Source: a virus
Lineage: Duplodnaviria; Heunggongvirae; Uroviricota; Caudoviricetes
Virus record (IMG/VR): IMGVR_UViG_2778261316_000008
Reading direction: 5' to 3' (one strand)
Length of the DNA stretch: 34,102 bases
Under the pieces are notes generated by a model, which worked only from the letters and a program-made list of their open reading frames with translations, made no database searches and was not told the origin of the DNA. The position numbers and the translations under genes were made by a program. Shown here piece by piece: positions 7,894 to 34,102 of this stretch; position 1 is the first letter of the stretch, and each line of letters starts with the position of its first letter.

Positions 7894-8114
7894 GACGCCT
7901 CCTTGAGGATGCCGGGGGTAACTTCTTTGCCTATTGCGACCGAAAGGTCTCGCAAAATCCGATAAGTCAAACGACCGCGTGGAAGTTCGCTTTTGCCTGC
8001 CCAGCGGCTGACAGCCTGGGTGACTGTTCGTGGCTCATAGCCCGCGTTAAGCGCGAACTGGCGCAAGCTACTGCCTCTTTCAACCAGCCGTGCCCGAACT
8101 TGTTGTTTGTTCAT
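7890..8114 (-). CDS. Ner-like DNA-binding protein (putative early/lytic regulator)
   Basis: 74 aa from ATG at 8114 (alternative GTG at 8120); LRQFALNAGYEPRTVTQAVSRW resembles Ner/Nlp family; first gene of the leftward arm, divergent from the repressor. Confidence 0.5.
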   Translation of the reverse strand: MNKQQVRARLVERGSSLRQFALNAGYEPRTVTQAVSRWAGKSELPRGRLTYRILRDLSVAIGKEVTPGILKEAS

Positions 8115-8202
8115 ATGCACCGTGTTCCTGTTGGGTTATGATGTACTCTATTGGGTCTATTGTACGCACCCGAACGGGTATGTCAAATTGAGATATGTTC
8201 AA
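8115..8202. promoter_or_regulatory. divergent promoter/operator region between Ner-like gene and repressor
   Basis: 88-bp gap between divergent start codons; two copies of CT(R)TTGGGT(Y)TA at 8129-8140 and 8149-8160 spaced 20 bp apart. Confidence 0.5.
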
Positions 8203-8613
8203 ATGAGTATAAAAGAGAGATTGCGCGAAGCGATGGATGCTAAGAGTCTGACAATTAAGGCATTGTCAGACTTGTCAAAAATTCCATATCGCTCACTTCA
8301 AAACTATCTGCGTGGAGAGAGAGAACCTAATGCAGAGGCTCTTGTTGCGCTAAGCACCCATTTGAACATATCAATAGATTGGCTACTTACTGGTAAAGGG
8401 GAAGCTGTTGGGGTAGAGAAAGCACAGCCAGCTAATCAGGAGCAGCATTTCAACCAGTCTGATCTGAAGTTATTGGAGCTGCTCAACCAACTGGAGCCAG
8501 AGGTGCGAAAAGAGTTGCTGCGAGGCGCTGAGGAAAAACAGCGAATGATTGATATGGAAAAACAGCTTAAGGAGCTGTCCGCAGCGTTCGAAAGATTAAA
8601 AAATACGGGTTAA
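8203..8613 (+). CDS. XRE-family HTH repressor (putative lysogeny repressor)
   Basis: ATG at 8203 (MSIKERLREAMD...); N-terminal Cro/C1-type HTH, C-terminal coiled coil; divergent from Ner-like gene; AT-rich. Confidence 0.7.
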   Translation: MSIKERLREAMDAKSLTIKALSDLSKIPYRSLQNYLRGEREPNAEALVALSTHLNISIDWLLTGKGEAVGVEKAQPANQEQHFNQSDLKLLELLNQLEPEVRKELLRGAEEKQRMIDMEKQLKELSAAFERLKNTG

Positions 8614-8648
8614 TCTGTTCCTATTAAGAACATTAGAGGTATAAGGAC

Positions 8649-9182
8649 ATGACTATGCGCAAATTATTTTTACCGTTGATATTTGTTTTATCTGGGTGTG
8701 GAGATAATACCGATCCTGCTGATACGTCCACCACAGCTAAGGAGCACGCGGTTTTTAGCGTTGAAACAGATAATCCGGTTGTAAATCGCGAATTACCGTT
8801 TATTCGCCAACAACTCCCCGGCCTGGATAAGTACGCGGACAGTTTTGAAAAAGTCGAAGTATCCGAGGATAGCGAACGTCCGGTGACAACGGTGCAGTTT
8901 CATATTAAAGACGAAAATAATATTCCAAGTGACTACATAGCCTCTGGTCATAATTGTTATTTGTTCATATCAAATAATGCCCACGAAGTGAAAATATCTA
9001 AATCAGCATGTCAGGCTGTTTTTTTCGATAAAACGGATGTTCCTGGTGGAGACCTGACCGTGAAACTTGATAAGGAAAAAGTTCCTATGACAGATGATGG
9101 TAAGACCCCGCGAGCAGGTTGTTTGAAAGCTTATTCACCAGAGCCAGATAATGATTATTGGACTTGTCCAAGGCAGGATTAA
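8649..9182 (+). CDS. lipoprotein (moron candidate)
   Basis: Signal peptide MRKLFLPLIFVLSGC with lipobox LSGC, Gly at +2; four further Cys; markedly AT-rich relative to late genes; 36 bp downstream of repressor with no intervening hairpin. Confidence 0.7.
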   Translation: MTMRKLFLPLIFVLSGCGDNTDPADTSTTAKEHAVFSVETDNPVVNRELPFIRQQLPGLDKYADSFEKVEVSEDSERPVTTVQFHIKDENNIPSDYIASGHNCYLFISNNAHEVKISKSACQAVFFDKTDVPGGDLTVKLDKEKVPMTDDGKTPRAGCLKAYSPEPDNDYWTCPRQD

Positions 9183-9229: not shown

Positions 9230-10000
9230 TCAAAAATTACAAATTACCAGCTCTTTCTTCGGGCTGGGTTTGCCTGTTACCTTAAGGTTGTAGCTGATAT
9301 CAACCGACTGCATGTTCAGACCGTTGAATACCTGCCGCATTTCCGGGATATCGTTCACTGATATAATCATCTTCCCTTTGATCCTTCGCGCTAAATCTGC
9401 CATGTGATCATAGTTTTCCAGCCCGAACTCCACACCATAGCCTTCCGTTCCCCAGTACGGTGGGTCACAGTAGAACAGCGTATGCGGGCGATCATATCGC
9501 TCTATGCACTGGTGCCAGTCCAGATGCTCTATCAGCGTTCTCGACAGGCGCAGGTGTGCCATCGACAGTTCTTCCTCAATACGCAGCAAATTGAAGCGCG
9601 GCGCACTGGTTGTAGAGGTACCGAATGTGTGATCGGCGACCTTGCCGCCAAATGCCTGTTTCTGCAGGTAGTAGAACCGGGCCGCCCGCTGAATGTCGGT
9701 GAGCGTTTCTTCCGGCGTATCCTGCAACCATTTGTAAATCTGACGGCTGACCAGCGCCCATTTGAACTGGCGAATAAATTCTTCCAGATGATGCTTGACC
9801 ACCCGATAGAGGTTCACCAGTTCCCCGTTGATATCGTTAATGACTTCGGTCTTGCTGGGAGTCTTTAGGAAATAGAGCGCAGCTGCCCCGCAGAACGGCT
9901 CCACATAGCAGGTATGGGCCGGAAACAATGGTAAAATATGCTTCGCCAGACGACGTTTACCGCCAATCCATGGGACGATGGGTAAAGATTGTTCTTTCAT
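9230..10000 (-). CDS. Dam-like N6-adenine DNA methyltransferase (D12 class)
   Basis: DPPY motif (LFYCDPPYWG), SAM-binding-like EPFCGAAALYF; ATG at 10000 (alternative TTG at 10024). Confidence 0.8.
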   Translation of the reverse strand: MKEQSLPIVPWIGGKRRLAKHILPLFPAHTCYVEPFCGAAALYFLKTPSKTEVINDINGELVNLYRVVKHHLEEFIRQFKWALVSRQIYKWLQDTPEETLTDIQRAARFYYLQKQAFGGKVADHTFGTSTTSAPRFNLLRIEEELSMAHLRLSRTLIEHLDWHQCIERYDRPHTLFYCDPPYWGTEGYGVEFGLENYDHMADLARRIKGKMIISVNDIPEMRQVFNGLNMQSVDISYNLKVTGKPSPKKELVICNF

Positions 10001-10247
10001 TATCCGTAAGCCTTTTGCAATCAATGAAAATATGGCAGGCTAGTCTGGTCTCGCGAGACTGACTGAACCCTGGTCGGCTCACAGTGCATACCTGTGGGTT
10101 GATGACCAGCCTGGTGTTACCGCACCGGGCTGGTCGTTCTTTCAAAGCCATCATGCGGTTCACGTCTGCATCCTCACTATTAACGCTGTTTAAAATCCCT
10201 TTCCCCGACCATTTGTGATGCTGTCTCCACTACACAAGGAGACGCTC

Positions 10248-10598
10248 ATGAAAAACCTGAAAAAATTCATTCCCCCTGTTAAAAAGCCACGTCTCAGCGG
10301 CTGGCTGCTGACCGCTGTGCTGCTGCTCGGCACCATCGGTCTGGTATCGCCCCAGCAGCTGCCGGTGGTTGTCTACAAGCTATCACTCATCACGCTGGCG
10401 GCAGTATTGGGCTACTGGCTTGACCGTTCGCTTTTCCCCAAAGCCCGTCCCGGTCAGTACCTGAAGCATGATGACAGGCTGATGGCTGATGGTCGCTTCC
10501 CTGTCCAGACTGGCCTTCACCTGGTCTTTTCTGCTGCGCTAATCCGCCGTGCGCTGATTGTTGCTGCAGTCTGTCTGGCCGTAGCGATGGGGCTTTAA
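10248..10598 (+). CDS. holin-like membrane protein
   Basis: ATG at 10248 with AAGGAGA RBS; three hydrophobic helices; immediately upstream of and overlapping the endolysin gene. Confidence 0.5.
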   Translation: MKNLKKFIPPVKKPRLSGWLLTAVLLLGTIGLVSPQQLPVVVYKLSLITLAAVLGYWLDRSLFPKARPGQYLKHDDRLMADGRFPVQTGLHLVFSAALIRRALIVAAVCLAVAMGL

Positions 10599-11335
10599 TG
10601 ATGACCCTCTATATGTACTGGCCTCAGGTTGTCTGGGCCGTGCTGGTACTGCTGGGGCTGGGCATCGAACTGGCCCGCTACGGGCAGGCCCGAACGGGTA
10701 AGCACAGTTTCTGGTGGCAGCTCTTTGGTTCAGTAACGGTAGCCTGGCTGCTCTGGTGTGGCGGCTTCTTCAGTCAGGCCCGCGCTGCCCAGCCACCGCA
10801 GACCGCGCTGCAGTATCGCGACGATGTGATCCGTAATGCCCGGCTTGAATGGGGAATGTCTGCGCCGGTGGCCGACTTCGCCGCGCAGCTGCATCAGGAA
10901 AGCGGCTGGCGACCTGATGCGGTCTCGCCGGTTGGCGCTCAGGGACTGGCGCAGTTTATGCCCACCACCGCTGACTGGATAAGTCAGCTGATGCCGGGGC
11001 TTAACAGCCGTGAACCGTTTAATCCGTCTTGGGCCATCCGGGCGCTGGTCAGCTATGACCGCTGGCTGTGGCAACGCGTCAGCGCCGTCAATGACTGCGA
11101 GCGTATGGCCATGACGCTGTCAGGCTATAACGGTGGTCTGGGCTGGGTACAGCGGGACAAACGGCTGGCCTCGCAGCAGGGGCTGGACAGCACCCGCTGG
11201 TTTGGTCATGTCGCCACGGTGAATGCCGGACGCAGCACTGCCAACTGGCGGGAGAACCGTCATTATCCGCAGCGCATCCTGCACGAACTGGCCCCGCGTT
11301 ATCTCACCTGGGGAGGCGGCAGCTGTGTGGACTAA
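10598..11335 (+). CDS. endolysin: lytic transglycosylase (SLT domain) with N-terminal membrane/SAR-like region
   Basis: SLT motif QESGWRPDAVSPVGAQGLAQFMPTTA; two N-terminal hydrophobic stretches. Confidence 0.75.
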   Translation: MMTLYMYWPQVVWAVLVLLGLGIELARYGQARTGKHSFWWQLFGSVTVAWLLWCGGFFSQARAAQPPQTALQYRDDVIRNARLEWGMSAPVADFAAQLHQESGWRPDAVSPVGAQGLAQFMPTTADWISQLMPGLNSREPFNPSWAIRALVSYDRWLWQRVSAVNDCERMAMTLSGYNGGLGWVQRDKRLASQQGLDSTRWFGHVATVNAGRSTANWRENRHYPQRILHELAPRYLTWGGGSCVD

Positions 11336-11978
11336 CCTGCTAAAAAATCTGCCGTGGCGCAGTCTGCTGCTGGCGGTGGTCATAAATGCTTTTCTGATTG
11401 GGCTTTATTACCTGGGCTACAAAAGCGGGCATGAAAACGCCACGCGCGACGGCGATAAGGCGGTCAGTGAGTTGCAGTCAGCATTCGACACGTACAAAAC
11501 GGAGCAGGCAACGCTTGAGAACGCTGCGTTGCGGGCTTGGGCGAAACGGTATCAGGAACAGGTAGCCGCCGGGCAGCAGGCTGAAGCCAGTTACCTTGAG
11601 CAGATTGCTCAGCTTGAGAGCCAGAACAAACAACTACAGGGGCAAATTAACGATGTCACACAGCGCTGGATTGATGAAAAAGGTAAGAGCCATCCCATTG
11701 AGTGCGTGTTTACTCGCGGTTTCGTGCGCCAGTACAACGCCGCGCTCGGATATGACAACGCATCCGTCGACGCCGGTCATTCAGACGCAACTGCCGCCGC
11801 TGGCACCGGCACTCGCGCAGCGTCCGGGCAACCTGCAGCCGCTGACGCCTGGCTACGCGACTCAGGCGTCTCCCAGCGTGACGTCCTCGCCAACATCATC
11901 GACAACGCGAAGCAGTGTCGCATCTGGCGCGGCCAGATAAACGGGCTGCTGGACGAACGGGAAGGATTACAGAAATGA
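11325..11978 (+). CDS. i-spanin (Rz-like)
   Basis: GTG at 11325 after GGGAGGCGG; N-terminal TM helix then long coiled-coil periplasmic region; follows endolysin. Confidence 0.6.
   Translation: MWTNLLKNLPWRSLLLAVVINAFLIGLYYLGYKSGHENATRDGDKAVSELQSAFDTYKTEQATLENAALRAWAKRYQEQVAAGQQAEASYLEQIAQLESQNKQLQGQINDVTQRWIDEKGKSHPIECVFTRGFVRQYNAALGYDNASVDAGHSDATAAAGTGTRAASGQPAAADAWLRDSGVSQRDVLANIIDNAKQCRIWRGQINGLLDEREGLQK
11674..11940 (+). CDS. o-spanin (Rz1-like lipoprotein) embedded in the +1 frame of the i-spanin gene
   Basis: MKKVRAIPLSACLLAVSCASTTP: signal peptide with lipobox AVSC, proline-rich mature region, wholly inside the Rz-like ORF. Confidence 0.55.
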   Translation: MKKVRAIPLSACLLAVSCASTTPRSDMTTHPSTPVIQTQLPPLAPALAQRPGNLQPLTPGYATQASPSVTSSPTSSTTRSSVASGAAR

Positions 11979-12307
11979 CGTTGCAGGTTGAATTCTGGAC
12001 GGTGGTGGGCTTTCTCATCACCTTCATGAGCTTTGTCGGCGGTATGGCCAAGTGGCTGTTCAGTAAAGCGGAGGAGCGTCAGGCGGCGCGGTTCGCCTCC
12101 CTTGAGCAGTCGCTGCAACAGTCCGCCTCCAACTGGGGCGAGCTGGAAAAAGAATTTATGCGGTTTAAGGCGGATTTACCGCTGAACTACGTCCGCCGCG
12201 AGGATTACATCCGTGGCCAGACGGTCATCGAGGCCAAGCTGGACGCACTCTACAACAAACTGGAAGTGGTACAGCAGTACCGTCATACAGGAGGTCACCA
12301 TGGTTGA
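11975..12307 (+). CDS. small membrane protein (Mu gp25-like position)
   Basis: ATG at 11975 overlapping spanin stop (ATGA); one TM helix then coiled coil. Confidence 0.5.
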   Translation: MTLQVEFWTVVGFLITFMSFVGGMAKWLFSKAEERQAARFASLEQSLQQSASNWGELEKEFMRFKADLPLNYVRREDYIRGQTVIEAKLDALYNKLEVVQQYRHTGGHHG

Positions 12308-12611
12308 TATCGCCCGCGTGCGCCGGGAATCCCTGCGCTGGAGTCTGCTGGTTGCTCTGAACAAAACCCGCCCGTATACCGCCAGCGAGACGCTGCTGCT
12401 GGATGTATCCCGCGCCATCTACCCGGACACCACGCCGCTGGAGCTGCGCCGTGAGCTGGATTATCTGGCCGACCGCAAGATGGTAGATCTGGAGAAAAAA
12501 CCCTCCGGCGACTGGTTTGCCGACCTGACCCGCCTCGGCGTCGACCTGGTGGAATACACCGTGGAATGCGGCCCCGGCATCGCCCGCCCGGAAAAGTACT
12601 GGAGTGAATAA
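12300..12611 (+). CDS. hypothetical protein (Mu gp26-like position)
   Basis: ATG at 12300 with CAGGAGG RBS; stop overlaps start of next gene (TAATG). Confidence 0.5.
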   Translation: MVDIARVRRESLRWSLLVALNKTRPYTASETLLLDVSRAIYPDTTPLELRRELDYLADRKMVDLEKKPSGDWFADLTRLGVDLVEYTVECGPGIARPEKYWSE

Positions 12612-13156
12612 TGGCCAGACGCAGCACGATAGAAAAGCTGCCGGAAGATGTGCGTCGCTGGCTTGAGCGGGCGCTGACTGAATCCGGCTTCAGCGGGTAT
12701 AACGAGCTGGAGTCCCTGCTGCGTGAGCAGGGTTACGTCATCAGCAAATCGGCTATCCATCGCTATGGACAGAAGATTGAGCGCCGCTATGGCGCTATCC
12801 GTGCGGCTACCGAAGCGGCCCGCATGCTGACCGAGGGAGCTGCTGACGATCAGGATGCGCGTTCGGAGGCGGTGATCGCCCTGATTCAGACCGAGCTGTT
12901 CGAGAGTATTGTCCAGCTGCAGGAAGCGGAAGAAGGCGAAGTCGACCCCAAAGAGCGCGTGGCGCTGCTGTCGAAGGTGGCGAAGAACGTGGCCACGCTG
13001 TCCCGCGCGTCCGTCAACCTCAAGAAGTTCCAGTCCGAAGTCCGGGCCAGAGCGCAGCAGGCAGCCAGCAACGCCGAGAAAATTGCCCGTAAGGGTGGAC
13101 TGTCAACCGATGCGGTGCAGGCACTGCGACGTGAAATTCTGGGGATTGCCACATGA
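12611..13156 (+). CDS. DUF3486 protein (Mu gp27-like, putative small terminase-like subunit)
   Basis: MARRSTIEKLPEDVRRWL... N-terminal domain; immediately upstream of and overlapping large terminase. Confidence 0.7.
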   Translation: MARRSTIEKLPEDVRRWLERALTESGFSGYNELESLLREQGYVISKSAIHRYGQKIERRYGAIRAATEAARMLTEGAADDQDARSEAVIALIQTELFESIVQLQEAEEGEVDPKERVALLSKVAKNVATLSRASVNLKKFQSEVRARAQQAASNAEKIARKGGLSTDAVQALRREILGIAT

Positions 13157-32208: not shown

Positions 32209-32380
32209 TCCGAAAATGTTAACTGAGGTTATTCCTGGATTTCATGACACCACTGATGCAATTGAATTGCCGGATGACAACTGGTTTTTCACAACAACTG
32301 AAATACCTGAAGGGAAAATACTCGCCGCAAATGAACGCGGCGAGCCCGTTCTGATTGATATTACTGTCCCGGAGGAGTAG
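32195..32380 (+). CDS. small ORF downstream of S (possible short or truncated tail fibre assembly protein)
   Basis: 61 aa from ATG 32195 with GGAGGG RBS, 14-nt overlap with S; no clear Tfa C-terminal domain. Confidence 0.35.
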   Translation: MRLFNPKMLTEVIPGFHDTTDAIELPDDNWFFTTTEIPEGKILAANERGEPVLIDITVPEE

Positions 32381-32957
32381 GCCAAATAATAACCGGTGCG
32401 CTGGCGGTGTCAACGCCCTCCAGCGCATCCAGATAATCAAGCCAGGCATTATATTGTTCTTTTTCTGCGTCCTTCAGGCGACCCATTGCTGCTTTACCAG
32501 GCCATTGCTTACCATTCATAAAGTCATTGGCCTGGCTAATCAGCGCCTGTAGTTTTGTTGCCGCCACAGAAATATCATATGCGCGCTGAGCTTCGGGATC
32601 GGCAACCCATTTATTACCATCCCATTTATCAAACTTTGTAGTTGGTGCTTCAAAAGTAAAGCCTTCACGCAACGGTCCAATATATTCGATAGTCACCGGC
32701 TTCCCGTTACTGGTGGTGTATGCTGTTTCTCCACGATGGTCTTCTTTAAGCACCCACTCAGATCCAGAAAAAATAAATACCTTCCCTCCTGCTTCGGCCC
32801 CTGGTTCTATCGCCGTAGAGCATCCGGGCATACTGACACCGATGTTAATAAACTCGTCAGACCATCCCATATATTCAGAAGTCACAGCGTCGTAGTAATA
32901 ACAGCGGATTTCACCCGGTTCTGTTGCCAGTCCGTTTACATCGAAAACAGGTTTCAT
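32361..32957 (-). CDS. tail fibre assembly protein (Tfa/U'-like)
   Basis: 198 aa; EDHRGETAY...GPLREGFT...KWDGNKWVADPEA matches conserved Tfa region. Confidence 0.75.
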   Translation of the reverse strand: MKPVFDVNGLATEPGEIRCYYYDAVTSEYMGWSDEFINIGVSMPGCSTAIEPGAEAGGKVFIFSGSEWVLKEDHRGETAYTTSNGKPVTIEYIGPLREGFTFEAPTTKFDKWDGNKWVADPEAQRAYDISVAATKLQALISQANDFMNGKQWPGKAAMGRLKDAEKEQYNAWLDYLDALEGVDTASAPVIIWPTPPGQ

Positions 32958-33472
32958 TATTTAGCCCTTACAAGAAAGTTGAATGCAATATTTCTTGGGC
33001 GGCTTTCCGTGGATGTTCTGGCAACCCTCGATAAATCAAAATTGAATGTAGAAGTTGATACGGTTCCGCCTGGTGCCGGGGGGGCCAGATTGCCCTGAAC
33101 AACGCTGCGAGAAAATACCCCCAACGCATCTGTATTTACCCCTGTATAAAGATCAACGAGATAACCAGTAACATTCTGAATGGCGTCTCCCTGCGGTGAA
33201 AGCAGGGTTCGCCCATTATCTATCCCACGTCCATCATCCCAGACACGCAGAAACTCTCCTCGCAGATCTGGCAATTTCAGGCCCGGCCAAACAAGGGCCA
33301 ATTTTGGGTAAGTGGTAGGGGAAAATGTTGAGTCGTTAAACTTAAGGAACACCATGTCGGCCCATTCCGGCATCACGGTATTTGGCATGGCAGAAGACGG
33401 CCAAAAAAATGGAACTCCTATCGGTGGTGCACCTGCTCCTAAACCAAGGTTTTTGGAAAAGCAGTTACACAT
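32957..33472 (-). CDS. alternative tail fibre C-terminal segment (S'v)
   Basis: Begins ...FSKNLGLG at the right gix-like site (same KNLGLG as in S); C-terminus ...TESRPRNIAFNFLVRAK matches P2 H / Mu S-type fibre tips. Confidence 0.7.
   Translation of the reverse strand: MCNCFSKNLGLGAGAPPIGVPFFWPSSAMPNTVMPEWADMVFLKFNDSTFSPTTYPKLALVWPGLKLPDLRGEFLRVWDDGRGIDNGRTLLSPQGDAIQNVTGYLVDLYTGVNTDALGVFSRSVVQGNLAPPAPGGTVSTSTFNFDLSRVARTSTESRPRNIAFNFLVRAK
33439..33456. repeat. hix/gix-like recombination site (right inverted repeat)
   Basis: CTAAACCAAGGTTTTTGG; core AAACCAAGGTTTTTG is identical to the core of hixL as I recall it (TTCTTGAAAACCAAGGTTTTTGATAA). Confidence 0.7.
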
Positions 33473-33520
33473 AGAGAAATCTGCAAAAATCCTCCCACTA
33501 TGATGTGAAGGAGGAAATTG

Positions 33521-34102
33521 ATGGCCGTTATTGGTTATATCCGCGTATCAACAATCGACCAGAACAGCGATTTGCAGCGTAATGCACTCACAAGCGCAAA
33601 CTGTGACCGCATTTTTGAAGACCGTATGAGTGGAAAAGTTGCCAGTCGCCCTGGTCTTAAAGGCGCTTTAAAGTGCATTAATAGCGGAGACACCCTGGTA
33701 GTGTGGAAACTGGACAGGCTGGGACGTAGCGTTAAGAACCTGATTGCACTCATATCAGAGTTACATGAACGTGGTGCCCACTTCCGCTCTTTAACAGACA
33801 GTATTGATACCAGCACTGCCATGGGGCGCTTCTTTTTCCATGTAATGTCGGCATTGGCGGAGATGGAGCGCGAGCTAATTGTCGAACGGACACTGGCCGG
33901 GCTGGCAGCAGCCAGAGCACAGGGACGCGTAGGTGGAAGGCCCAACGCATTAAAAACCCATGAGCGAGAGCAGATTGGGCGGCTATTGACGAAGGGGCAC
34001 ACCCGCCAGCAGCTGGCAATTATCTACGGTGTAGGGTTATCGACGCTTTACCGATACTTTCCGGTGGATGGTCATAGGAAGGATAACGCAGCAGGAATGT
34101 AA
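33521..34102 (+). CDS. gin: Gin/Hin/Pin-family serine DNA invertase
   Basis: 193 aa; GYIRVSTIDQN with catalytic Ser, VWKLDRLGRS, C-terminal HTH (GRPNALKTHEREQIGRLL...LSTLYRY); GGAGGA RBS; stop is the last codon of the window. Confidence 0.9.
   Translation: MAVIGYIRVSTIDQNSDLQRNALTSANCDRIFEDRMSGKVASRPGLKGALKCINSGDTLVVWKLDRLGRSVKNLIALISELHERGAHFRSLTDSIDTSTAMGRFFFHVMSALAEMERELIVERTLAGLAAARAQGRVGGRPNALKTHEREQIGRLLTKGHTRQQLAIIYGVGLSTLYRYFPVDGHRKDNAAGM

Follow-up and report, generated by a model that had tools for sequence, protein, structure and literature searches.

Fusion of a small membrane-hairpin gene to the lytic transglycosylase endolysin of a BcepMu-type Escherichia coli prophage

We analyzed the lysis cassette in IMG/VR record IMGVR_UViG_2778261316_000008, a 34,102-nucleotide stretch of tailed-phage DNA given as one strand (here called the window). 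The central gene of the cassette (positions 10598-11335, plus strand) encodes, from its ATG, a 245-amino-acid (aa) endolysin that is an SLT lytic transglycosylase. By its sequence, this endolysin is an in-frame fusion of a hairpin gene of ~60 residues to an SLT domain, with the hairpin standing in place of the SLT domain's own signal. Taken as a whole, the reading that we favor and on balance hold to be probable is that this fused-hairpin enzyme is exported by Sec, is most likely cut between A63 and A64, and acts within a lysis cassette of the BcepMu type. The cassette overall is ordinary and of a known kind; the fused hairpin and the swapping of export signals among relatives of the enzyme are modestly new. 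A preliminary description of the same DNA had proposed a lysis cassette made up of a holin, an SLT endolysin, an i-spanin and a nested lipoprotein open reading frame (ORF), and all four elements were found at the positions that it gave.

Make-up of the endolysin and the small-protein family of its hairpin

The catalytic part of the endolysin (residues 64-245; positions 10787-11335, plus strand) matched PF01464 over residues 98-194, scoring 53.8 bits against a curated cut-off of 21.3 bits, and the SLT protein matched phrog_669, annotated "endolysin," at 4.7e-69. A profile of the family also matched E. coli Slt70 (1sly; 2.5e-9), as well as MltF and MltC. In the alignment with Slt70, the invariant pair E101-S102 falls on the "ES" motif of that enzyme, and E101 (nucleotides 10898-10900) is by this alignment the catalytic glutamate. 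Across 42 sequences, E101-S102, G116-L-A-Q119 and Y177-N-G-G180 were invariant or nearly so, and two cysteines, C167 (nucleotides 11096-11098) and C243 (nucleotides 11324-11326), were invariant. These matches identify the domain as a family-1 lytic transglycosylase. C167 and C243 probably form a disulfide in the mature enzyme. An AlphaFold2 model of the endolysin was poor (pLDDT 54, pTM 0.33, from a 39-sequence alignment) because the alignment input was limited to close homologues; its best-predicted part was the N-terminal helices.

Ahead of the catalytic part, residues 1-63 (positions 10598-10786, plus strand) make up an N-terminal export or anchor module, delimited by a match to phrog_5479, hydropathy, charge and position frequencies. 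Two helices, at residues 8-26 (nucleotides 10619-10675) and 38-58 (nucleotides 10709-10771), are joined by a basic loop, ELARYGQARTGKHS (residues 24-37). An AXA motif, A61-R62-A63 (nucleotides 10778-10786), follows helix 2 in the context SQARA↓AQPP, where the arrow marks a predicted signal peptidase cut after nucleotide 10786. Gly, Ala, Ser and Thr account for 21% and 29% of the two helices and Leu, Ile, Val, Phe and Met for 43 to 53%, and helix 2 contains four tryptophans. The N-terminal tail has a charge of 0 and the loop +3/-1, and Glu24 lies in helix 1. The SLT enzyme of the preliminary description, with an N-terminal part of about 60 residues holding two hydrophobic stretches, was thereby recovered in both its catalytic match and its two helices.

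This N-terminal module belongs to a widespread family of small proteins. Endolysin residues 6-59 matched profile positions 1-53 of 53 in phrog_5479 (E = 5.7e-12), and the three motifs of that family, WPQ, HGxP(K/R)TG and GGFF, are all present in the hairpin. An exhaustive search of 1.84 billion representatives returned 348 cluster representatives of phrog_5479-type stand-alone proteins of ~55 aa; among the best 150 of these 348, 85 were 50-59 aa and 26 were 60-69 aa long. No model in Pfam or NCBIfam matched this WPQ...GGFF family. B3-like Pseudomonas phages (JBD25, D14K, Fc02 and others) resemble the window in having a homologous holin, SLT (54% identity) and embedded spanins, and they also encode the WPQ...GGFF two-helix protein inside the lysis cassette. 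There, however, the two-helix protein is the product of a separate 52-aa gene, and the SLT protein carries its own lipobox-containing signal, MKRLLTLGLLGLLSAC. In JBD25 this gene, gp25 (phrog_5479, 2.4e-31), lies between the holin and SLT genes, and the corresponding gene of D14K, annotated "phage lysis protein," occupies the same place. The full-length match to phrog_5479, taken with the existence of a separate gene in the B3-like phages, marks the endolysin as a fusion of the small gene to the SLT domain. Literature searches on endolysins with two N-terminal membrane helices and on B3 lysis genes turned up nothing pertinent.

The stand-alone gene also occurs elsewhere: in individual phage records it was located among replication genes in Mica, the FoX phages, BcepB1A, a Rhizobium phage and Clostridioides phages. 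In Clostridioides phage LIBA2945, which has a Gram-positive host, the WPQ...GGFF gene (L014 2501-2671) is beside ERF and helicase genes. Some members of the family are tandem four-helix duplicates of ~110 aa (P0124, P0132, P0141, P0144 and others). Xanthomonas phage FoX5 gp66 (L005 2501-2671) is a 56-aa hairpin protein that has no catalytic domain and is labeled "lytic murein transglycosylase," a label probably transferred from likeness to the N-terminus of fused endolysins.

Exchange of export signals and the fate of the hairpin

To survey N-terminal types, we tallied them in the best 120 of 1,586 SLT homologues (cluster representatives). The WPQ...GGFF hairpin was present in 86 of the 120, a truncated or mosaic hairpin retaining GGFF in 11, and an unrelated two-helix hairpin (MTMIFYIISC...) in 4. 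A further 11 had a short N-terminus; these included Leu-rich classical signal peptides (for example, MANRIRHNGSGSGLLFLLLILLLVGTFDSDA↓AQP), hybrids and a few fragments. In the hybrids P0113 and P0067, the loop and half of each helix have been deleted internally. The type B hairpin had no stand-alone relative in PHROGs or in phage genomes. Further signals were seen in individual phages and prophages: the endolysin of phiE255 has a single 20-residue signal, MRVLIAFLVVLLGAAAPAAA↓QVPP, in contrast to the 63-residue hairpin in E. coli; those of JBD25 and B23 have lipobox-containing signals; the SLT protein of RSK1 carries yet another N-terminal signal; and in Pectobacterium, where the SLT protein has a plain signal peptide, the cassette contains no separate gene for a hairpin. 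Across relatives, mean identity was 56% in the N-terminal region versus 80% in the catalytic part, and the two values were uncoupled (51% and 96%, respectively, for P0007; 20% and 89% for P0061). By this comparison, at least six interchangeable export signals occur on one SLT catalytic domain. Since signal types are swapped and the N-terminus and the enzyme diverge independently, it is export that is conserved and not the particular signal.

Two groups of relatives warrant separate mention. The SLT protein of JBD25 (L008 1726-2355) has a signal with a lipobox-like LLSAC↓Q, and that of phage B23 (L016 1390-2112) has LLLSC↓A; these endolysins may be lipoproteins rather than signal-anchor-release (SAR) enzymes, as which the literature classes them. 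P0096 and P0017 (402 and 355 aa) join SLT, i-spanin and o-spanin frame through read-through or frameshift; one of them shows the o-spanin frame as protein, and both are probably assembly or annotation errors.

JBD25 encodes hairpin and SLT domain in two genes, and this could also be taken to mean that the single ORF of the window is an artefact of gene calling or assembly, with two genes read as one; a related reading is that the N-terminus faces inward and the enzyme is cytoplasmic. Next to no weight attaches to either. The single ORF is intact in the 86 hairpin-bearing representatives, which come from many genera, the full-length DNA is found in 621 E. coli genomes, and neither a start codon nor a stop occurs between hairpin and SLT domain. 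Conservation effectively refutes an artefact, and a cytoplasmic enzyme is contradicted by the positive-inside rule and by the relatives with signal peptides.

The sequence comparisons establish which genes are present, that the endolysin is a modular fusion, that its AXA motif is conserved and that the spanin region is dual coding. The topology of the hairpin, its cleavage, and holin control over the timing of an enzyme already exported are the elements of the favored reading that we infer. For topology, an uncharged N-terminal tail ahead of a +3 loop, the tandem duplicates in the small-protein family, the single-signal relatives (whose domain is necessarily periplasmic) and the invariant cysteine pair all place both hairpin ends and the SLT domain in the periplasm. 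In the tandem duplicates, GGFF and the following WPQ are only a few residues apart, so that both ends of a hairpin would lie on one side of the membrane. We therefore regard export with an N-out/C-out topology as highly probable.

For cleavage, we inspected the columns around the predicted site in 113 sequences. Position -3 was Ala in 94, Ser in 8 and Val in 5, position -1 was Ala in 110, and position -2 varied freely (N, R, H, D, A, S, C). At -9/-8 of the predicted site there is a helix-breaking Gly-Gly, and Pro is absent from -3 to +1. In all enterobacterial variants, (A/S/V)-x-A↓A(Q/E)PP is kept after the last helix, across unrelated N-terminal modules. The (A/S/V)-x-A↓A pattern has the look of a classical signal peptidase I signature. 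Even so, we judge actual cleavage of the endolysin at A63↓A64 to be an evenly balanced call. The preliminary description had set its proposal against an ordinary secreted enzyme with a cleavable Sec signal only; what we see is a probable signal peptidase site, but one that lies behind a two-helix hairpin and not a simple signal peptide.

Lys44 of Oenococcus phage fOg44 is reportedly a secretory endolysin with a cleavable signal peptide. The SLT lysin of phage KS10, a BcepMu gp22 homologue and a homologue of the enzyme described here, has been reported to have a signal peptide with a cleavage site predicted by SignalP (PMC2628397). The window enzyme would share with these secretory endolysins Sec export ahead of holin action, in which case the timing of lysis must be set after export. 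Unlike theirs, its putative signal is helix 2 of a hairpin and not a simple N-terminal signal peptide.

In the sequence of events that we propose, the hairpin would insert with both ends periplasmic and the basic loop cytoplasmic, helix 2 serving as an internal Sec signal that places the SLT domain in the periplasm. Leader peptidase would then most likely cut at the conserved A61-x-A63↓A64-Q-P-P, yielding a membrane peptide of 63 aa, which matches the stand-alone protein in size, and a free 182-aa enzyme that is probably disulfide-bonded through C167 and C243. Wall degradation would become lethal only once the holin collapses the membrane potential, and the spanin pair would next disrupt the outer membrane. 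A small membrane protein in the releasin position probably follows the spanins in the cassette.

Several observations weigh against this account. Helix 2, at ~21 residues, is longer than a typical cleaved h-region and could therefore be an uncleaved signal-anchor. Conservation of AAQPP could reflect the start of the mature fold or a recombination junction. Free secretion of the endolysin would not by itself explain how a holin comes to time lysis in a Gram-negative host. The motifs WPQ, HGxPxTG and GGFF are kept in most fused copies, and a helix-2 cysteine is present in ~70% of sequences; the kept motifs hint at a role beyond that of a generic signal. The AlphaFold2 model, at a pLDDT of 54, lends no structural support to the C167-C243 disulfide or to the fold. 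Finally, related Pseudomonas SLT endolysins have been classed as SAR enzymes (Chamblee et al. 2022, PMC9239132).

The length of helix 2 bears most directly on a reading in which the hairpin stays uncleaved and keeps the SLT domain permanently tethered at the periplasmic surface of the inner membrane, as in a membrane-bound lytic transglycosylase. Such an enzyme would be lethal only after holin action, for example through altered reach or activity on depolarization or through assistance by the membrane protein encoded downstream. In favor of this reading, both helices are properly hydrophobic, and the length and Trp-rich composition of helix 2 favor stable insertion; relatives have other tethers, namely, a second hairpin type and the lipobox-containing signals of JBD25 and B23; and a membrane protein is present in the releasin position. 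Against these points stand the conservation of (A/S/V)-x-A↓A with a free -2 position over unrelated N-terminal modules, the short Leu-rich classical signal peptides of close relatives, which are likely cleaved, and the linker after helix 2, which at only ~10 residues would pin the enzyme tightly to the membrane. We consider permanent tethering unlikely, though a serious contender. The preliminary description had suggested an N-terminus that is either of the SAR type or membrane tethered; its membrane targeting is upheld and tethering is still a live alternative, but a SAR mechanism is not supported.

In a SAR mechanism, the N-terminal segment or segments would hold the exported enzyme inactive and leave the bilayer when the holin depolarizes the membrane, possibly with releasin-like help. 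We retain it as a minor rival because of the classing of the Pseudomonas relatives by Chamblee et al., in which these endolysins are paired with DUF2730 proteins. A protein of matching topology is encoded 3' of the spanins, and helix 2 scores 1.21 per residue on the Kyte-Doolittle scale, under the usual transmembrane threshold, as SAR domains do. However, helix 2 is weak on that scale only because of its four tryptophans, and the Wimley-White octanol scale ranks it among the most membrane-favorable helices tested. There are two helices instead of one weakly hydrophobic, charge-free segment, and their Gly, Ala, Ser and Thr fractions (0.21 and 0.29) compare with 0.62 for Mu gp22 and 0.56 for Burkholderia phage Mica. 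Release would pull a loop with three basic residues through the membrane, the conserved A-x-A↓A site lies after helix 2, and close relatives carry plain Leu-rich signal peptides on the same catalytic domain. The downstream gene has no detectable DUF2730 homology. We therefore rate SAR behavior as improbable. A thiol switch of the P1 Lyz type was also set aside, as the helix-2 cysteine occurs in only ~70% of hairpin variants and in none of the signal-peptide variants.

Phage Mu, with its SAR endolysin gp22 and releasin gp25 (PMC9239132), is an instructive comparison. Like the window's prophage, it is a transposable phage with an exported, membrane-associated endolysin (predicted in our case) and has a gene for a small N-out/C-in membrane protein just upstream of gp26 and gp27 homologues. 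The Mu endolysin, however, is a muramidase whose single SAR segment is weakly hydrophobic, and Mu has no holin. The window has a holin and encodes a lytic transglycosylase whose two-helix hairpin is followed by an AXA site, and its gene in the releasin position has no detectable DUF2730 homology.

The retained motifs bear on a further reading, which makes the hairpin a regulator of lysis in its own right (an antiholin, a pinholin or a releasin-like protein), produced from the endolysin ORF, so that cleavage gives two functional lysis proteins. Its gene is separate within B3-like lysis cassettes, with the annotation "phage lysis protein," the family motifs are kept in the 86 fused homologues among the best 120, and a large conserved hairpin family implies a function of its own. 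Yet the stand-alone gene is elsewhere part of replication modules, in the five groups of phages named above, and cassettes that have a plain signal peptide do without the hairpin, while in others it is partly deleted or mosaic. We hold a regulator of this kind to be very improbable. A two-in-one lysis gene, from which leader peptidase would yield a free transglycosylase and a 63-aa two-helix peptide that itself regulates lysis, for instance by modulating holin triggering or sensing the membrane potential, is a speculative idea to which we assign a small chance.

Holin, spanins and the gene in the releasin position

The cassette genes lie on the plus strand, tightly packed and translationally coupled, in the order holin, SLT endolysin, i-spanin, nested ORF and 110-aa membrane protein; Mu gp26 and gp27 homologues and then the large terminase gene lie downstream. 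The first gene (10248-10598, plus strand, ATG to TAA) encodes 116 aa and is directly upstream of the endolysin gene, its stop codon overlapping the endolysin ATG (TAATG). Its product matched PF13272 Holin_2-3 (E = 1.1e-41) and phrog_1528, "holin" (2e-54), and has three hydrophobic segments that are membrane helices by hydropathy prediction. Homologous holin genes in phiE255, JBD25 and RSK1 lie immediately 5' of the SLT gene or, in JBD25, one small gene apart. By profile, helices and position, the product is a predicted holin.

The i-spanin gene (11325-11978, plus strand; 217 aa) starts at a GTG that has GGAGG 8 nucleotides upstream and overlaps the endolysin stop codon. A longer ORF, from 11223, was rejected as the i-spanin gene, the real start being GTG 11325. 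The product matched phrog_1403, "Rz-like spanin," over its full length (1.8e-85), and the homologue in NCTC 13148 is named "lysis system spanin subunit" in RefSeq. An N-terminal transmembrane domain (TMD; residues 13-31) precedes a helical periplasmic domain with weak coiled-coil-type Pfam matches, in agreement with the i-spanin architecture of the preliminary description. The protein has two periplasmic cysteines: that of HPIECVFT, conserved in every relative examined, and that of AKQCRIW.

Embedded in the +1 frame of this gene is the predicted o-spanin (11653-11940, plus strand), of 95 aa if read from ATG 11653 or 88 aa from ATG 11674. Its predicted signal is MKKVRAIPLSACLLAVSC↓AS. The lipobox was judged by pattern match: LAVSC fits the PROSITE pattern, with the lipidated cysteine at nucleotides 11725-11727. 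Ala at +2 directs outer-membrane sorting, and there is no inner-membrane retention signal. The mature protein (71 aa) is Pro/Ser/Thr rich, with 15% Pro, and has no cysteine beyond the lipidated one. The preliminary description had given an 88-aa Pro-rich lipoprotein ORF with an AVSC lipobox in this frame; the frame, lipobox and composition stand, and the 88-aa start is possible, but ATG 11653 appears the more likely start because it is common to the Pectobacterium relative. The mature o-spanin is identical from either start. In a Salmonella prophage (L012 3207-3857), ACG and ATA stand in place of the two E. coli o-spanin ATG codons. Translation would there begin either from the one ATG left in frame, 16 codons further upstream, with an n-region of unusual length, or from a non-canonical start codon.

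To evaluate the embedded frame, we shuffled synonymous codons of the i-spanin gene. An open +1 frame of at least 124 codons arose in 28% of shuffles, and the length of the open frame was for this reason dropped as evidence for the o-spanin; a lipoprotein-like +1 ORF arose in 54 of 5,000 shuffles (1.1%). The third-position difference in the i-spanin gene fell from outside to inside the overlap in comparison with PhiKM (0.278 to 0.111; Fisher P = 0.003), the Salmonella prophage (0.629 to 0.337; P = 4e-5) and the Pectobacterium prophage (0.609 to 0.400; P = 0.004). Within the overlap, the greatest variability against the two closest relatives, PhiKM and KP12, falls on i-spanin codon position 1, where the embedded ORF has its wobble base. 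This substitution pattern reads as the signature of a second, selected reading frame. A +1 lipoprotein ORF is found at the same place in PhiKM, KP12, the Pectobacterium and Salmonella prophages, phiE255, JBD25 and RSK1, and the motif PLTPGYA is common to the E. coli and phiE255 ORFs. The spanin pairs of BcepMu/phiE255 and B3/JBD25 have already been catalogued as embedded (Kongari et al. 2018). Together, the lipobox signal, the selection on the +1 frame and the homology to these catalogued pairs bear out the earlier interpretation of the ORF as an embedded o-spanin, which was annotated in none of the database records inspected.

The pair has the architecture of lambda Rz/Rz1-type embedded spanins, in which an inner-membrane protein with an N-terminal TMD is encoded together with a Pro-rich outer-membrane lipoprotein that lies wholly inside its gene in the +1 frame. 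The o-spanin covers 0.50-0.94 of the i-spanin length, which is the usual location of embedded o-spanins (Kongari 2018). Unlike lambda Rz1, to which it has no sequence similarity (no family match), the window's mature o-spanin is longer and has no periplasmic cysteine. It differs in the latter respect also from the o-spanin of phiE255, which has one. Periplasmic cysteines for intermolecular disulfides are present in ~96% of spanin pairs (Kongari 2018); with no such cysteine in the mature o-spanin, any covalent link would need to be within the i-spanin.

The next gene (11975-12307, plus strand; 110 aa), a candidate accessory lysis gene, starts in an overlap with the i-spanin stop codon (ATGA). 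Two points in our analysis were absent from the preliminary description: this gene in the releasin position, 3' of the spanins and past the end of the segment then described, and the status of the hairpin as a separable, gene-sized module. The 110-aa protein has a TMD at residues 7-25, Lys/Arg after the TMD and a helical tail, for which we predict an N-out TMD with a cytoplasmic tail. Its gene occupies the slot of Mu gp25 and is followed, as in Mu, by phrog_436 (Mu gp26) and Mu gp27-like genes. Membership in the releasin/DUF2730 family was nevertheless rejected. PF10805 gave no match to the protein at E <= 10 or to any of 37 family members at E <= 1, the protein was assigned to phrog_462 (5.8e-35) and not phrog_736, and hhalign of the family alignment against DUF2730 returned a probability of 2%. 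BLASTP against JBD25 gp29 also gave no match, and the B3-like phages, in contrast to the window, have a true DUF2730 gene following the spanins (PF10805, 4.6e-9). Two homologues of the 110-aa protein are named "DUF2730" in UniRef. The topology and gene position of the protein agree with those given for releasins (PMC9239132), and by analogy it may work like one. Both phrog_462 and phiE255 gp54 (L007 2927-3265) are labeled "lipoprotein"; the protein has no cysteine or lipobox and consists of an N-terminal TMD and a helical tail, and the annotation is probably wrong.

The prophage and the significance of the cassette

The lysis cassette belongs to the late gene set of a BcepMu-type (Mu-like, transposable) E. 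coli prophage. Nearest in DNA sequence was Escherichia phage Phi06_2974 B, with 99.4% identity to the lysis region, followed by the "Klebsiella phage KP12" record (92%) and PhiKM (84%), which is classified in Bcepmuvirus. Genes elsewhere in the window code for a transposase (rve), a MuB-like ATPase, the portal and F proteins of Mu and a Gin-like invertase. Matching DNA was detected in 636 of 5,426 complete E. coli genomes, 621 of which contain most of the query. The Burkholderia phages BcepMu and phiE255 themselves have this gene order, with a PF13272 holin, an SLT endolysin (57% identical where aligned) and an i-spanin with a +1 embedded lipoprotein, followed after the spanins by a phrog_462 membrane protein and Mu gp26/gp27-like genes.

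Several features around the cassette were recorded. A promoter scan of 9900-12700, including the region upstream of the holin gene, found no sigma-70-like promoter. A 13-nucleotide inverted repeat, GACCAGCCTGGTG / CACCGGGCTGGTC, with 6-nucleotide spacing (10104-10135), lies within the 223-bp gap between a divergent Dam methylase gene and the holin start, and may be a candidate binding site of a late activator. The methylase gene (9230-10024, minus strand) encodes a D12-class N6-adenine DNA methyltransferase (PF02086, 1.1e-27; phrog_56, 4.6e-100). Between it and a helix-turn-helix repressor-like gene is a 177-aa ORF (8649-9182, plus strand) with a lipoprotein signal, MTMRKLFLPLIFVLSGC, inside a patch of low GC content (8001-9000, 44% GC); this ORF had a weak match in phrog_10002 and none in Pfam, and it looks like a moron-type cargo gene. 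At the other end of the window, 32361-34102 includes the gene of a Gin-like serine invertase (PF00239, 4.4e-46) that runs past the window end and adjoins oppositely oriented tail-fiber-assembly genes, probably an invertible host-range segment akin to the Mu G segment.

What is mildly new in this cassette concerns the targeting of endolysins, with a whole small membrane-protein gene fused in frame as an export signal. The cassette type is present in about one of nine complete E. coli genomes. These common E. coli prophages would, provided that the enzyme is secreted or freed before the holin fires, be an easy system in which to study the timing of a periplasmic endolysin, and they could reveal the role of a gene in the releasin position that is not DUF2730. 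Should the two-in-one reading prove true, it would provide the first functional lead for the WPQ...GGFF family, whose 348 cluster representatives extend to phages of Gram-positive hosts, and an example in E. coli of a holin controlling an endolysin that has already been secreted.

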